From sequence record ON528736: DNA of 64,000 nucleotides; one strand, written 5' to 3'. Below are positions 1,707-57,948 of this stretch, piece after piece. Under the pieces are notes generated by a model. That model saw only the letters and a list, made by a program, of their open reading frames with translations. It was not told the origin of the DNA and did not search any database. Position numbers and translations under genes: made by a program. Each line of letters opens with the position of its first letter. Position 1 is the stretch's first letter. This stretch comes from Shigella phage ESh26.

Positions 1707-3134
1707 CTAAAATTTTAATTCATTTGCCAAAGCATCTAACTGAGCTCGAGCGGATTCGTTTCTTTGATAGCGATTCTGTTCAGCCTGAATCTGCTGTGAA
1801 CCTGCTACTTCGTTCACTTCGGTTGGAGTAGAATCTTGCTCAATTTCTACCCATTTCTGATTTCCTTTTTGAACACCCATCAAAAACTTATTCCATTTAT
1901 TCTTATCACCGTATCGTGATTTGATTTGCTTAATGAGTTGTTGTTCAGCAGCTGCTAGCTCCTCGGTTTCAATGACCGCAAGCATAAAATCAGCTGTTGC
2001 TGGAAGACCGGCAGATTCTGCAATATCGCTCATGTTAACATCAGAAGAGTCCCAAGCTTGCTTACCAACCTGTGCTGCAGTCCAAAGAACAGTTTCGGTT
2101 TCAACAGCCAGAGCACGCAATTCCTCTGCGATAGCTTTAACAGTCGTGTAACTATTTTCTGAATAAACTCTGATGCGGCAAGATTTACAAATACCCAGAT
2201 AGTCAACAATAATGATTGTTGGAACAAAATTCTTCTTGAGCTTTAATTCATTTAAAAGCGACCGAAATGTATTAGCGTCTGCTCCACCAGTAGGATATTG
2301 CTTAACGATTAAACGACCGAGAGTAGATTTCTCACGCCATTTTTCCATTTTTCCTTTATACTCAGCGTAAGAAATATGCCCATCATCAATGTCATCAAGG
2401 GAAACATCAAGCATATTAGCATCAATACGTTTAGCACAAACTTCTTCTGCCATTTCCATGGAAATGTAAAGAACATTGTGTCCGAGCTGCAAATAATCTG
2501 CTGCCAATGAACACAATCCTAATGACTTGCCAACGTTAACACCGGCCATTAAAACGTTCAGTGTTCCAGTTTCAGCTCCGCCTTTAGTAATTTTATTTAG
2601 AATTTTGAGTTTAAATGGAACCTTACGAGCTTTATTCATATAAGATAGCCAACGTGCTTCGTAGTCATCCATCCAATCATGACCAACGTAACTATCAAAT
2701 GAAATTGATAATGCTTGGCGCATGATGTCAGGAATAGCACCAACATCCGGCATTTTCTTATTTCGTTTTTCTGGAGGAAGCTCAGCATTAGTTTGAATTT
2801 CAATTATTTTAGACGTAGCATTAAACATCGCCCTTTGCTGAACATATTTTTCTGTTTCTTTTACTAACCAGCTGTGGTCTTCTGGAGAATCGGCTAGTTT
2901 CGAAATAAGTGTTTTTACACCAGAATATTCTGTTTCAGTAAATGAACTATTTTCTAATGCAACATTTAACGCATTAATAGATGGAACGCTATGGTATTCA
3001 TTAACATGAGATTTAATTAATTTGAATGTATTTTTAGCTGGACCACTTTCAAAATATTCTGAATCCATATATGGCCAAACTTTTGAAAAATAAGCTTGAT
3101 CAAATATGAGATGAGAAAGAATAATTTCTACCAC
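1707..3134 (-). CDS. 41: replicative DNA helicase gp41 (DnaB family)
   Basis: 475 aa, Walker A GVNVGKS, T4 gp41 length and synteny. Confidence 0.95.
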   Translation of the reverse strand: MVEIILSHLIFDQAYFSKVWPYMDSEYFESGPAKNTFKLIKSHVNEYHSVPSINALNVALENSSFTETEYSGVKTLISKLADSPEDHSWLVKETEKYVQQRAMFNATSKIIEIQTNAELPPEKRNKKMPDVGAIPDIMRQALSISFDSYVGHDWMDDYEARWLSYMNKARKVPFKLKILNKITKGGAETGTLNVLMAGVNVGKSLGLCSLAADYLQLGHNVLYISMEMAEEVCAKRIDANMLDVSLDDIDDGHISYAEYKGKMEKWREKSTLGRLIVKQYPTGGADANTFRSLLNELKLKKNFVPTIIIVDYLGICKSCRIRVYSENSYTTVKAIAEELRALAVETETVLWTAAQVGKQAWDSSDVNMSDIAESAGLPATADFMLAVIETEELAAAEQQLIKQIKSRYGDKNKWNKFLMGVQKGNQKWVEIEQDSTPTEVNEVAGSQQIQAEQNRYQRNESARAQLDALANELKF

Positions 3135-3143
3135 ACTTACTCC

Positions 3144-3506
3144 TTAAAAGAATTTAAATTTTTTCTTTGACCTTTTATTAAATGCATCTTGTAGTTGCAT
3201 TGTAATACATTTTTCTACATGAGGAGCTAACTCAGCTTTTCTTTCTTGGTCAAGAACAGCAAAGTCCATTACGACTTTTCCATCAACCCAATCTAATTTT
3301 GTCACATACACAATGTGTGTAGAACCGTCTTCTAGTTTAATGACAATCTCCTGGATAACATTTTCCATGGCAGATTTAATTATCTTAAGAGATTCATTAA
3401 AAAGACGTTCTTTTCTTTCTTCTTCCCCCTCCGAAGAGGGGGATTCATCGATAATTTCTAGATCTAAATCTAAATCATCTTTATTCATTAAATTCTTCCA
3501 TATCAC
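3144..3506 (-). CDS. small acidic protein at gene 40 position
   Basis: 120 aa ORF between uvsX and 41. Confidence 0.45.
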   Translation of the reverse strand: MIWKNLMNKDDLDLDLEIIDESPSSEGEEERKERLFNESLKIIKSAMENVIQEIVIKLEDGSTHIVYVTKLDWVDGKVVMDFAVLDQERKAELAPHVEKCITMQLQDAFNKRSKKKFKFF

Positions 3507-4662
3507 TTAACTGATCTAGGTCAGTTTCTAAATCAGCTGCTGATTTACTTTTACTTTCTGGAGATTTAAATTTTTCAACCTTTGAGTTAATCAATTCATC
3601 AACTTCAGCTTCAACAATTTCATTACTATCAATAGCACCTAACTGATAAGCACGTTTAATAGCATCTCGGAATGGCTGATGCTTAAATAAAGGACCCCAG
3701 AATGTAGTGCAGTTGGTATCTTTTGCACGCCAAGATTTTTCTTCGCGAATCATCTCACCGGTTTCTTCGTCAAGAAATTCACGAGCATACCAGCCATTTT
3801 TAGGTTTTACCACAAATCCTAATTCTAGAGCCATATCTAACAATCCAGAATAAGGATCGATGCCACCGTCAAATTTAACATCAATAAAGAATTTACTTTT
3901 TTCTTTAACGGTACGAGATTTTTCTACATTTAGAACAAATTGATACCCCTGAAGATCAGAACCATCTTTAATCTGGCGCTTACCGATAATGAATACGGTA
4001 TCAGCCGAATACATTACGCCTGTACCACCTGTCATCACGGTTTTACTAAACATTTCAATTGTTTCAATTGTATGGTTAACCGCAACGCATGGAATGTTTT
4101 TAATACTAAAATAAGGAGTAACAATACGGAATAATGACTTCAGTGATTTAGCACGAGTCATATCTGCTACAGATTTTTCATTCAAGGCATCTTCCGTTTC
4201 TTTCTTAGAAGCCATATTACCGATTGAGTCGATGAATACAATAACTTTTTCACCGCGCTCAATAGCTTCAAGCTGATTCACCATATCAATTTTCAGCTGT
4301 TCAACTGACTGAATTGGTGTATGAATTACTCGTTCCGGGTCAACTCCCATGGATCGCAAATAAGCTGGAGTAATACCAAATTCGCTATCATAAAATAGAC
4401 AAACCGCGTCAGGATATTTGTTCAAATACGCCGCAACCATAGTCAAAGACATATTTGATTTAAAGTGTTTAGAAGGACCTGCAAAAATGGTTAAACCAGA
4501 CTGCATACCACCATCAATCGCACCAGAAATAGCGATATTAAGCATTGGGATTTTTGTACGGATTACATCCTTTTCATTAAAGAATTTAGATGCAGTCAGT
4601 TCAGCAGTCATTTTAGAAGTGGAAGCTTTAATCAAACGGGATTTTAAATCTGCAATAGACAT
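3481..4662 (-). CDS. uvsX: UvsX recombinase (RecA/Rad51 family)
   Basis: 393 aa, MSIADLKSRLIKASTSK..., near-identical to recalled T4 UvsX. Confidence 0.95.
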   Translation of the reverse strand: MSIADLKSRLIKASTSKMTAELTASKFFNEKDVIRTKIPMLNIAISGAIDGGMQSGLTIFAGPSKHFKSNMSLTMVAAYLNKYPDAVCLFYDSEFGITPAYLRSMGVDPERVIHTPIQSVEQLKIDMVNQLEAIERGEKVIVFIDSIGNMASKKETEDALNEKSVADMTRAKSLKSLFRIVTPYFSIKNIPCVAVNHTIETIEMFSKTVMTGGTGVMYSADTVFIIGKRQIKDGSDLQGYQFVLNVEKSRTVKEKSKFFIDVKFDGGIDPYSGLLDMALELGFVVKPKNGWYAREFLDEETGEMIREEKSWRAKDTNCTTFWGPLFKHQPFRDAIKRAYQLGAIDSNEIVEAEVDELINSKVEKFKSPESKSKSAADLETDLDQLSDMEEFNE

Positions 4663-7122: not shown

Positions 7123-7380
7123 TCAAATACAAGCAGTAATTACTCCAGTAGTGCTTACACAGGTATTACCTAATTGAACACCAAGCGTTCCATTAGTATT
7201 CATATGAAGATTATCATCAATTTTTGTTGATACTTTACCATTCATGTGAATAACAGTATTAGATTCAATCACATTCTGAGTGTCATTTTCAATATCAATA
7301 AATGGAACAGCTGCTAATGCAACTAGAACAACTGCTAATGCAACTAAACACGCTGCTAAACAACCATAAACAATTTTCAT
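7123..7380 (-). CDS. small membrane protein
   Basis: 85 aa from ATG 7378-7380 (MKIVYGCLAAC...), early promoter and SD directly upstream; the longer track ORF would read through the promoter. Confidence 0.5.
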   Translation of the reverse strand: MKIVYGCLAACLVALAVVLVALAAVPFIDIENDTQNVIESNTVIHMNGKVSTKIDDNLHMNTNGTLGVQLGNTCVSTTGVITACI

Positions 7381-7411
7381 TTTATTCTCCAAATCCGTAT
7401 CAGTTGATAGT

Positions 7412-7444
7412 TGTATAGTACCATGGAAGAACAGAGATGTAAAC
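7412..7444 (-). promoter_or_regulatory. T4-type early promoter
   Basis: GTTTAC -35, GGTACTATAC -10, A/T-rich UP region; same cassette as at 33874-33905. Confidence 0.65.
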
Positions 7445-7532
7445 CGTTTTGTGAAAAAATTTTTAATGAATTTACAGGACCTAGAATCATCTATTTTTCC
7501 TAAGTATAGATTTATATTACTTGTATGAAAAA

Positions 7533-54565: not shown

Positions 54566-54566
<1 letters not shown>

Positions 54567-55279
54567 TATAGTACCTTTAGTGTATTTTTAATTTTAGAAA
54601 AAAGTTCTTCAAGAGAACCATCGTTTGTAATTACTAAATCGCCATCACGAATTGGCAATCCAGCTTCTGTAATATGTGTATCATTGGATTTTTGACCAGG
54701 ACGAACTACATGAATTACTGTAGCACCCATCGCCCTAGCCGCATCCATTTCATGATCTTGACGAGTATCAGGAACGATATAATAATCATAACCTGAGTTA
54801 AATTTATCAAGATAATCTAAAGCAAATAATTTTACCCAATACATGCGGTCGAAGTTATTAACAATCAAATCCGTACCTAGGGCTTGCATCAGACGACGGA
54901 CTGACCATTGATCTTCAATATTATTTATAACGTCAGCAATCTTGTTAAATGCTACGAAATTAACTGCGTCATCAAAAACAAACACACCTTTAATTGGGCT
55001 TTTACTATTAAGATAGCAAAATGCTTGTTCCATAATCGTAATTACTTCTAATTTAGTCAGATTTAAATTAGTTTCACGATCATAGTCAATTCCTTCAAAC
55101 TCTTTACGAGTTAAGCAAGGATAATCAGTGTTTGCTGCAAATACGCCCCATGCATAAGCCAATGCATCCTTAATAGGACCAGCAAGTTGATATTTAACTG
55201 CAGAATAATTTTTCATGATAAAATCTGCAGTAGTATCTTTTCCACTACGCTTTACACCACTTAAAAAGATTAGTTTCAT
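54566..55279 (-). CDS. 1: deoxynucleoside monophosphate kinase gp1
   Basis: 237 aa, P-loop GVKRSGKDT. Confidence 0.9.
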
Positions 55280-55328: not shown

Positions 55329-55859
55329 TTAAACTTCTGCTATAATTTTGCCATCTTTTTCTACTTGAAAATACATATAAGGAATCGTTGCTGTGCATAC
55401 TAAGGCTGGGTCTGAATCTTCCGTGTAGCTAAATTCTACTTCAGAGAGGTCAGAAACCCAAGGCTTATAAAAATTTATTGACATCACGATTTCAGTTTTA
55501 CTATTATCTAAAATGTAAAGCGTAATGTATTCAGGACCTGTTTTTTGGGCAGTATTTTCGCCTGTAAGATAGTTACTAGTTCCTAGCATCCATTCATACA
55601 TTCCTATCCACGACTTAAGCTCTTCATCAACTATAAATCTCACGATGAGTGGATCATACTCAAATGTAACTCCTGGACGCTGTGCTCGGCCTAGTCCAAA
55701 CGGCCCAGTCACGGTATCAGTAACAGGTATCCTAATTCCTGGAATAGGAACTGACTGAGCATTTAAAGTAAAAGCAGATGTAGTATTACTATGCGGTATT
55801 GATACTACAAAGTTAGTTGTATTTGCTTGGTTAAAAATTTGTTGTAGTGCTTGCGACAT
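55329..55859 (-). CDS. 3: tail completion/sheath stabilizer gp3
   Basis: 176 aa from ATG 55857-55859 (MSQALQQIFNQ). Confidence 0.75.
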   Translation of the reverse strand: MSQALQQIFNQANTTNFVVSIPHSNTTSAFTLNAQSVPIPGIRIPVTDTVTGPFGLGRAQRPGVTFEYDPLIVRFIVDEELKSWIGMYEWMLGTSNYLTGENTAQKTGPEYITLYILDNSKTEIVMSINFYKPWVSDLSEVEFSYTEDSDPALVCTATIPYMYFQVEKDGKIIAEV

Positions 55860-55965
55860 ATATTCCTCATAATGCTTCATAAATGTTGGTGGTATAATGG
55901 GTCTAAGTCCCTTCCATTCAATTCCAATTAGAACAAACAATAGAAAAGAATGGAAGATAATAGAA

Positions 55966-56640
55966 TTAATTTATTAGACTTCTTAAACGAGCAGAAGTCA
56001 TAAATGGAAATTTTTCTAAAGTTGGCTTTCGCCAATATCTTGGATGACAAGTTGATTTAAAATCAAGAACAATTTTCTTTGCTTCATCAATAGTGTTAAC
56101 TCCAAAGTTATCTAACATTATTTTCTTTTCTTTTTCCCACCGTTTATTAGCTAAAGCAGATTGAAGCTTTTTGTTTTTAAATGTGTCATTTTTTCTAGAA
56201 TGAGTTGTGCCTTGTGTCGGACTCCATCCTCTTCCTAAAATAAATCCCTCAGGAATTATATCTCCATCATGTAATTTTATACATCTTTTACCATTATTAT
56301 AATATTTTCGTCCAGTTTGTGTATTTGAAATATTATTTGCATGTTTTCTTTTTAACCAACCATAAACTTTATTATTTCTCCTAACATATTTAGTTGAAAC
56401 CGTCATTTTTATGGCTGCATAAGATAATTTTAAAGAATTTGGGTGTATTTTTACTAATAGCTGATGTGCAACATAATGCTCTTCTGGAGTTAAATCAACC
56501 AAGTTAGAAGCATCATTACTACCGCCTAAACATTTCGGAATAATATGATGTCTTTCTTTATATCCAGTAAGGGCTCTATTGCGAGCCCTATCAATTAGTG
56601 AATTATAAATTTTTTCATAATTCATCGTACATTGCTCCAA
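55966..56640 (-). CDS. free-standing HNH endonuclease (homing-endonuclease-like)
   Basis: 224 aa; [37 protein letters not shown] motif; basic C-terminal half; between genes 3 and 2. Confidence 0.6.
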
Positions 56641-57449
56641 ACTTTGTTTGCAGAGAAACGTTTTCCTTTGGAGTAGAAGCTTTGGAGTGGCATTAACACA
56701 ACGTTCGCCCAGTCTTTCGGGGCGATTTCAACAAGGCTACCCATGATATTACCGGGTATATATGCCTTAATCATTTGATCTGCACCCCTAAATCCTTTCA
56801 CTTGACTCCAATCAATTTTTAATTTCGTTTTATTAGTAATAGTAGGTGTATTTGAATATTGCTTTAAAAGCTCTTCTAGAAATTGCTGACGAGCTTTAGG
56901 TGGAATATAGTGCAAGTTCAATCCGTACATTAAATTATGTTTACCTAAACCAAGATAAATTATCAAAGGAAATTTATCCCAGTAAGGAAGAGTTTCCTTG
57001 TGTTTAGCATCATAAGCAAAAGCATATATTCGTCCCGGCTGCGGGCGAACAACTTTATGTCCTTTTACTTGCTTAATAGTTTCAGCAAACCACTTTCTGG
57101 TTTTATTATTAATTGCTGCGCCTTCATTACGAATTTTATCACGCAATGTTTGCCTGAATGAATTTATCATAAGCAGTTGTCTTTCTTGCTTATTGAGTTT
57201 ATTCATTGGTTTTGATTCAAGCTTTTGAATCTTTTCAGCTGTTTTAATTCCTGAAGCATATTTTGACATTGCTGAAGTAAACGTAGAGTATTTGATTCCT
57301 CTTTCTTCGGCAAATTGCTTTCCTGTCATTCCTTTTGCTTTGGCCTTTTTGTATTCAAGACCTATCTGAATCCATTTCTTTTCGTTTAATGATTGCTTAA
57401 CCTTTGGAACTTGGGGAGTGCTTTCATTAATTATTTGAAAAATAGCCAT
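56622..57449 (-). CDS. 2: DNA end protector gp2
   Basis: 275 aa, T4 length and synteny. Confidence 0.85.
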
Positions 57450-57901
57450 TATGCCCCCTTAAAGCCAAGAGCTCGTAATCCATCTTCTGTTAGAATTCTA
57501 AATTTTATTCCGCGCTTTTCAGCTAAAGCTTGCGCTGCTTTCCATTTATCAGTATTAACGGAATATGTATAAATTTCATTCATAAATCTTTTCTTCGCTG
57601 CAGTTGTTAGATGTGCTGGTTTAACTGGTGGTTGTGTTTCTTTTTTAGGTTTTATTTCAATAAAAAATTCTTGACCAGAAGAATCTTTCATCCAAATATC
57701 CATGAAGTATCTACGTTTTTTCCCTTCTGCATTACAAAAATAAGGAATTACTGCTGTTTCACTACCCCATGCAATAATTTCTGGATTTTTATCTAACCAT
57801 TCAAAAAAGAATTTTTCCCAATTTGATCTATACGTAATTTTTTTAGGGTCACCTCTATATTTTGATATATTTTTAGGAACCCATTTTCCAGAATATGCCA
57901 T
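57449..57901 (-). CDS. 4: head completion protein gp4
   Basis: 150 aa, T4 length and synteny. Confidence 0.85.
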
Positions 57902-57912
57902 TGGATTCTCCT

Positions 57913-57920
57913 TATAAATA
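57913..57920 (+). promoter_or_regulatory. late promoter TATAAATA for gene 53
   Basis: plus-strand TATAAATA 29 nt upstream of ATG 57949. Confidence 0.7.
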
Positions 57921-57948
57921 GATAATATATTTATAAACAGGAGGGCCC

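Follow-up and report, generated by a model that had tools for sequence, protein, structure and literature searches.

Mob-type homing endonucleases and the closest described gene

Proteins of the HNH superfamily share a signature that consists of a general-base histidine ending strand 1, a structural asparagine, and a metal-binding histidine or asparagine in the helix. Among them, I-HmuI of Bacillus phage SPO1 is an intron-encoded HNH nicking endonuclease with an N-terminal HNH domain and extended DNA-binding modules. The Mob proteins of T4-like phages have an HNH domain in common and differ in their C-terminal domains, and T4 MobE, the characterised member of the MobA-E family, is promoterless and nicks the recipient allele near its own insertion site (PMC2790892). 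Escherichia phage RB32 holds two mob-like HNH genes by the count of Petrov et al. 2010 (PMC2993671), and its GenBank annotation describes one RB32 gene, RB32ORF146c (ABI94970.1), as "similar to mobB; not conserved from T4 position". Our literature search found no dedicated study of ORF146c or of a gene 2-associated HNH endonuclease.

We analysed a 64,000-nucleotide stretch of Shigella phage ESh26 (ON528736), referred to below as the window, in which a protein 100% identical to RB32ORF146c is encoded, likewise between gene 2 and gene 3. The two loci differ in that their flanks are a different mosaic, and in nothing else of substance; the gene is already known, with annotation going back to the RB32 genome, and is ordinary for T4-like phages. 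Within the T4 Mob family its closest member in sequence is MobB, and it resembles the family in its N-terminal HNH module, its unique C-terminal domain, its free-standing position between conserved genes and its sporadic distribution; no promoter of its own was seen, MobE likewise being promoterless. The T4 mob genes differ from it in C-terminal domain and in site, with MobB encoded by RB55 in its a-gt region and MobE lying between nrdA and nrdB, and the hairpin that masks mobE's ribosome-binding site is without support at the window locus. The general plan of I-HmuI is also alike, with an N-terminal HNH module and then a C-terminal region; NUMOD-type modules (PF07460, PF22083) were not found in the window protein by Pfam search at E ≤ 1, and some partial homologs of the endonuclease have matches to PF22083 or PF07460.

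From these sequence comparisons, we consider it very probable (roughly 85%) that this gene is the same as RB32ORF146c and encodes a free-standing Mob-type HNH homing endonuclease that targets the empty gene 2/gene 3 junction. The importance of the result lies mainly in correct annotation. Beyond this, the enzyme is uncharacterised in the literature searched, and could be an addition to the HNH enzymes that nick or cut at a specific site and whose natural target is defined.

Gene model and neighbouring genes

The ORF list of the window contains an uninterrupted minus-strand frame at 55966..56640, which begins with TTG at 56640 and encodes 224 amino acids. The true start is likely to be the ATG at 56625..56623 rather than this TTG, which gives a homing endonuclease gene at 55966..56625 on the minus strand, with 219 amino acids and a TAA stop at 55968..55966, as indicated by the ORF list, tblastn, the RB32 annotation and PHROG 655. 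The 219-residue form opens MNYEKIY, and all GenBank annotations inspected share the MNY start, as do 28 of 29 aligned homologs, the remaining one having an N-terminal extension of 5 residues. An earlier, sequence-only reading of this DNA had described a 224-residue HNH ORF that overlaps gene 2 by 19 nt. The ORF is real and the motif is present in it, but the gene lies on the minus strand and its product probably has 219 residues; the 19-nt overlap arises artificially from use of the earliest in-frame start (TTG), and the ATG start shares 4 nt (ATGA) with the gene 2 stop TGA at 56624..56622. That this is no chance frame follows from the match of its product to PHROG 655, "homing endonuclease" (E 1e-58), from 2933 database homologs at E ≤ 1e-5, and from the 45% identity to MobB described below. 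The G+C content of the gene is 29.5%, against 35% for the window.

The upstream neighbour is gene 2 (56622..57449, minus strand), whose stop overlaps the endonuclease start, and the downstream neighbour is gene 3 (55329..55859, minus strand), separated from the endonuclease by a 106-nt spacer that is common to T4. Both had previously been called tail genes, which is correct for gene 3, a tail completion and sheath stabilizer gene, but not for gene 2, which encodes the DNA end protector. Similarly, the description of the C-terminal half of the endonuclease as basic is accurate (predicted pI 10.1) but does not set that half apart, as the N-terminal half (9.95) and the protein overall (10.1) are basic too. 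Further out, gene 4 (57449-57901) and gene 1 (54566-55279) are placed on the minus strand by the ORF list and the RB32 annotation. Gene 1, a dNMP kinase gene, shows a core-gene length polymorphism of its own, measuring 714 nt in the window, HY03, fPS-2, CE1 and CT01, and 726 nt in RB32, T2, vB_EcoM_112 and others.

The N-terminal HNH module

The motif to which the sequence-only reading drew attention corresponds to residues 24-57 of the 219-residue form. Invariant columns, the predicted fold and weak Pfam matches place the HNH catalytic core at residues 24-54 (56464..56556, minus strand). Residues E24, H26, H27, N41, E49, H50 and H54 are invariant in alignments of 29 and 39 homologs, and this set contains the residues by which the HNH superfamily is recognised (H26/H27, N41, H50 and H54). 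An AlphaFold model of the whole endonuclease (mean pLDDT 90.7) has strands at 24-27 and 42-45 and a helix at 47-60, all with pLDDT ≥ 95. The best PDB matches found by Foldseek are HNH domains (Cas8-HNH, Cap5, McrA and Gme), albeit non-significant at E ≥ 0.45. Neither relevant Pfam model reached its gathering cutoff (HNH_5, 17.8 bits against 27.5; HNH, 16.5 against 21.4); judged by these scores, the Pfam HNH models fit the Mob-type variant poorly, in contrast to PHROG 655 with its E of 1e-58.

The core lies within a larger N-terminal Mob-type module, residues 1-114 (56284..56625, minus strand), which is common to many other phage homing endonucleases. Over these 114 residues the protein is 45% identical to MobB of the T4-like phage RB55 (E 2e-30), as expected of a Mob-family protein, whose N-terminal HNH domain is homologous to those of MobA-E. 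The invariant HNH residues and the MobB identity together support the original assignment to the HNH endonucleases.

Anatomy of the insertion and the end of gene 2

Relative to T4, T2 and about 470 other records, the window has an insertion of 659 bp at 55970..56628, with boundaries ambiguous by a few bases. In the alignments with T4, T2 and other phages, the insertion point is exactly the gene 2 stop codon: T4 reads ...AAA GTC TGG TCA AAT ATC TAA and then TTCTATTATCTTCC, whereas the window reads ...AAA GTT TGG AGC AAT GTA CGA TGA, the endonuclease, TAA and then TTCTATTATCTTCC. The empty site in T2/T4 has the sequence ...AAAGTCTGGTCAAATATCTAATTCTATTATCTTCCATTC...; the sequence-only reading had proposed an alignment that looked for an insertion-free target, and a precise empty site is thus found in T4, T2 and others. 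Just downstream of the insertion point and upstream of gene 3 (55903-55951, minus strand) lies a perfect 10-bp inverted repeat, UCUUCCAUUC ... GAAUGGAAGG; its overall fold is ordinary (z -0.63), and as it is also present in T4 it is part of the native gene 2-gene 3 spacer.

The insert is accompanied by a recoding of the last four codons of gene 2 (56626..56640, minus strand; KVWSNVR-stop, against KVWSNI-stop in T4), as seen by direct reading and alignment. The change of the gene 2 serine codon from TCA to AGC creates a GGAG at 56638..56635, with a 9-nt spacer before the endonuclease ATG. This recoded tail goes together with the insert: the alignment begins at base 1 of a 120-bp query in all 37 insert-bearing records, and only at base 12 in every insert-free record among the 60 best-ranked matches listed.

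A second cluster of substitutions is found at 56670..56687 (minus strand; QSFYS, against QQFVS in T4). It is present, with single-base variants, in 9 of 9 insert-bearing loci aligned, and the 120-bp query that includes it is matched at ≥ 98.3% identity by all 37 insert-bearing records. From the alignment, the cluster could be a tract co-converted with the gene or a polymorphism that confers immunity. An immunity polymorphism exclusive to carriers was rejected, because the variant is shared at ≥ 95% by at least 15 insert-free records, vB_SsoM_113 and FL12 among them; for the same reason the cluster alone may not be taken as a determinant of immunity, and we retain it as a candidate co-converted tract only. 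More generally, the 3' end of gene 2 (56670-56687 and homologous positions) is unusually polymorphic across Tequatrovirus-like records, with 52 records at ≥ 95% identity to the window's 120 bp, 156 at 90-95% and 295 at 80-90%.

Distribution among phages

The ORF is matched by 37 phage records in a megablast search, 36 of them over its full length at 98.8-99.9% DNA identity (RB32, RB33, HY03, fPS-2 and vB_EcoM_112 included); the 37th match, Shigella phage CT01, covers 29% of the query. The gene 3-to-gene 2 interval is held by 511 phage records (megablast), and the insert is present in 36 of these and a remnant in 1, a frequency of about 7% of sequenced Tequatrovirus-like genomes. With the insert the gene 3-gene 2 region measures 2121 bp and without it 1462 bp, and in the insert-free records among the matches listed, T4 (M23012) and T2 included, the flanks are 659 bp closer together. 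A scan of IMG/VR for further loci returned only two, both insert-free. Carriers span several ICTV species (RB32, hy03, fps2 and e112).

Several expectations of the sequence-only reading can be compared with this distribution. It supposed that T4 has no endonuclease here, and in T4 (M23012) and T2 the gene 2 stop indeed runs straight into the gene 2-gene 3 spacer, with no gene in between. It also held that the same gene at the same position in T4 and all relatives would mark a conserved core gene; presence in 36 of 511 records identifies a sporadic insertion instead, and a free-standing insertion polymorphic among close relatives, with an empty site in T4 and T2, is what is seen for genes of the Mob family. 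Finally, seg- and mob-type insertions were said to be missing from the window, and a simple scan agrees, having found neither a further mob-like HNH ORF nor a GIY-YIG motif in it. Just downstream of its gene 5, vB_SsoM_113 (locus 7285-7462) has an annotated Seg-like GIY-YIG endonuclease gene, and a gene of the same place and length in FL12 (locus 7286-7462) is annotated as hypothetical; as the simple scan found no GIY-YIG ORF in the window, this looks like another nearby endonuclease polymorphism of presence and absence.

The location of the gene in a morphogenesis gene block, adjoining the gene of a DNA-end-binding protein, is what might be seen of a packaging-associated HNH nuclease comparable to the terminase helpers of cos-type phages. 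We consider this explanation extremely improbable, since the gene is missing from most relatives, so that natural insert-free phages effectively show normal packaging, and since its closest relatives in a characterised family are the Mob homing endonucleases and not terminase-associated HNH proteins. Moreover, T4-type phages are established to use headful packaging without an HNH terminase helper.

Signatures of mobility and decay

We compared the flanks of 8 carriers and 6 non-carriers over about 3 kb on each side (2.5 kb for RB32). Carriers diverge from one another by 0.5-0.9% within the gene and by 2-4% in the flanks, and the flank diversity between carriers equals that between carriers and non-carriers in this sample of 8 and 6. 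The flanks of the window are as close to those of the insert-free phages vB_SsoM_113 (22 and 15 differences) and PST as to those of any carrier. Outside the gene, the stretch that carriers always share is limited to about 25-40 bp in the direction of gene 3 and to about 30-100 bp of gene 2. In the carriers examined, these population data present a near-identical gene on unrelated flanks, co-inherited with the recoded tail and the adjacent cluster, a pattern consistent with unidirectional gene conversion that takes flanking sequence along; together with presence in 36 of 511 records, they bear out the earlier proposal of a mobile insertion. The locus marks a local recombination hotspot, which is relevant when therapeutic Tequatrovirus genomes are compared or engineered.

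Not all copies are intact. In CT01, a 486-bp in-frame internal deletion removes the HNH core and leaves a remnant (locus 2001-2174) with a 57-residue ORF, the recoded gene 2 tail being kept. Escherichia phage FL23 (locus 3601-4259) has a 1-nt deletion, equivalent to window position 56446, which shifts the frame, breaks the gene into two annotated ORFs and makes it a pseudogene. FL44 is alike as far as annotation and match go, with two homing endonuclease ORFs annotated and a 674-bp match that is also 1 nt short. In Salmonella phage Manna (locus 2959-4254) the endonuclease stop codon is lost through a 1-nt deletion and nearby substitutions, and a single 1296-nt ORF is therefore annotated that takes in the endonuclease and the spacer and continues into gene 3; it may reflect either a genuine fusion or an error of sequencing. 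The CE1 copy is missing one codon. Broken copies thus number at least three, and such stages of decay are expected of a selfish gene; the locus illustrates the life cycle of such genes in T4-like phages, from invasion through spread on many backgrounds to decay.

The broken copies in CT01 and FL23 (with FL44 annotated alike), and possibly in Manna, raise the question of whether the endonuclease was formerly mobile and is now inactive or merely persisting, being carried passively by ordinary recombination between co-infecting phages. The very short flank tracts that are co-inherited with the gene would also suit such passive carriage. Against it, the window copy is full length and retains every invariant catalytic residue, and the SNPs in the intact copies are 9 synonymous to 3 non-synonymous, a ratio that indicates purifying selection on these copies. 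The near-identity of copies on diverged backgrounds, in addition, argues for recent and efficient spread. We therefore judge that loss of activity is an unlikely account of the gene as a whole, and favour a homing endonuclease.

The C-terminal region and orthologues at the same junction

tblastn and the comparison with MobB define a family-specific C-terminal region at residues 98-219 (55969..56334, minus strand). The whole protein matches 1096 phage records at many loci (tblastn), and those matches sampled beyond the closest relatives involve the N-terminal part only. The C-terminal 122 residues, on the other hand, match only 77 phage records, at a single place in each (tblastn). This part of the endonuclease has no similarity to MobB, and by that comparison and by tblastn the protein has a C-terminal domain particular to one member, as Mob-family proteins do. 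AlphaFold predicts a beta-hairpin at 106-119, a low-confidence linker and four helices at 152-218 that form a four-helix bundle, for which a structure search returned no informative relative of the C-terminal region.

We inspected seven distant examples: Citrobacter phage Ursula, Dhakavirus ABTNLS3, Roskildevirus Cronus, Gaprivervirus VR7, Winklervirus X20, Gualtarvirus PSTRCR_121 and Hadassahvirus Maestro, the last of which belongs to a different subfamily, Twarogvirinae. In 7 of 7 the gene occupies the gene 2/gene 3 position and abuts or overlaps the gene 2 stop. The VR7 record itself remarks on similarity to MobB and RB32 ORF146c. These Straboviridae orthologues (VR7ORF161c, Cronus gp274, X20 gp263, Maestro gp168, Ursula CDS0195 and those of ABTNLS3 and PSTRCR_121) likewise have the two-module architecture, and their insertion point likewise abuts the gene 2 stop. 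Three were compared with the window protein over the whole protein and have a full-length identity of 51-64%; identity in the C-terminal region is 46-61%. They differ in that the recoded gene 2 tails and the ribosome-binding sites vary between lineages. The restriction of the C-terminal region to 77 records, with 7 of 7 examples at the gene 2/3 junction, suggests that it acts as a target-specifying module, and we presume it to be a DNA-binding domain; binding to DNA is assumed, as the domain is without an informative structural relative.

A constant position by gene 2 in all eight inspected genomes from divergent genera, with a start/stop overlap or direct abutment, would also be explained by a domesticated nuclease that benefits the phage, whether by excluding competitors beyond its own locus or by processing DNA ends in cooperation with gp2. 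Yet a site-specific homing element gives a constant position equally well, about 93% of Tequatrovirus-like genomes, T4 and T2 among them, are fully viable without the gene, and pseudogenised copies occur in viable phages. Domestication is consequently a very improbable explanation, and we retain that of a Mob-type homing endonuclease.

Taking the orthologues into account, one may tentatively picture an old, site-faithful homing endonuclease lineage that has followed the conserved gene 2 end (...SANKVW) through at least two Straboviridae subfamilies, with the hypervariability at 56670-56687, just upstream of the insertion point, reflecting an arms race over the target site; insert-free phages with the carrier-type variant at 56670-56687 would then be naturally resistant escape alleles. 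We offer this combined picture as a possibility that is rather more likely to be wrong than right. In either case, orthologues fixed at one junction across divergent genera are a ready-made system for the study of endonuclease-target co-evolution.

Proposed homing pathway and expression

For the homing endonuclease that we favour, the events would be as follows. When a carrier and an insert-free relative infect together, the C-terminal domain would bind the intact junction of the gene 2 end and the spacer, and the HNH module would then nick or cut nearby on the insert-free genome, by analogy with MobE. Recombinational repair would transfer a copy of the gene, with a few tens of flanking bases, to the recipient, and the carrier genome would be protected because its own site is interrupted by the insertion and the gene 2 codons next to it are recoded.

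A pattern search found no TATAAATA late-promoter consensus between gene 2 and the endonuclease, and sigma-70-like and terminator-like sites in this interval are no more frequent than in shuffles; a promoter or terminator belonging to the endonuclease itself was rejected for these reasons. The same search located TATAAATA at 57928..57935 (minus strand), upstream of gene 4, which is the only match upstream of the block formed by gene 4, gene 2 and the endonuclease. Late transcription therefore probably, as far as these patterns indicate, starts from the late promoter of gene 4 and reaches the endonuclease by read-through, within the gene 4-gene 2 unit. Translation would then probably start from the endonuclease's own GGAG, possibly with coupling to the termination of gene 2 through the ATGA stop/start overlap.

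A predicted RNA fold pairs CUCCAAA in the second substitution cluster with UUUGGAG at the Shine-Dalgarno sequence (SD), and is ordinary in stability (z -1.25). A mobE-like hairpin that sequesters the ribosome-binding site was rejected, as SD pairing never exceeds that of shuffled controls at 8 orthologous loci, where the fraction of shuffles that reach the observed pairing probability is 0.12-0.73. Separately, the TATAAATA upstream of gene 4 is one of a back-to-back pair, at 57913-57920 (plus strand) and 57928-57935 (minus strand), within the 47-nt gap between the divergent genes 4 and 53.
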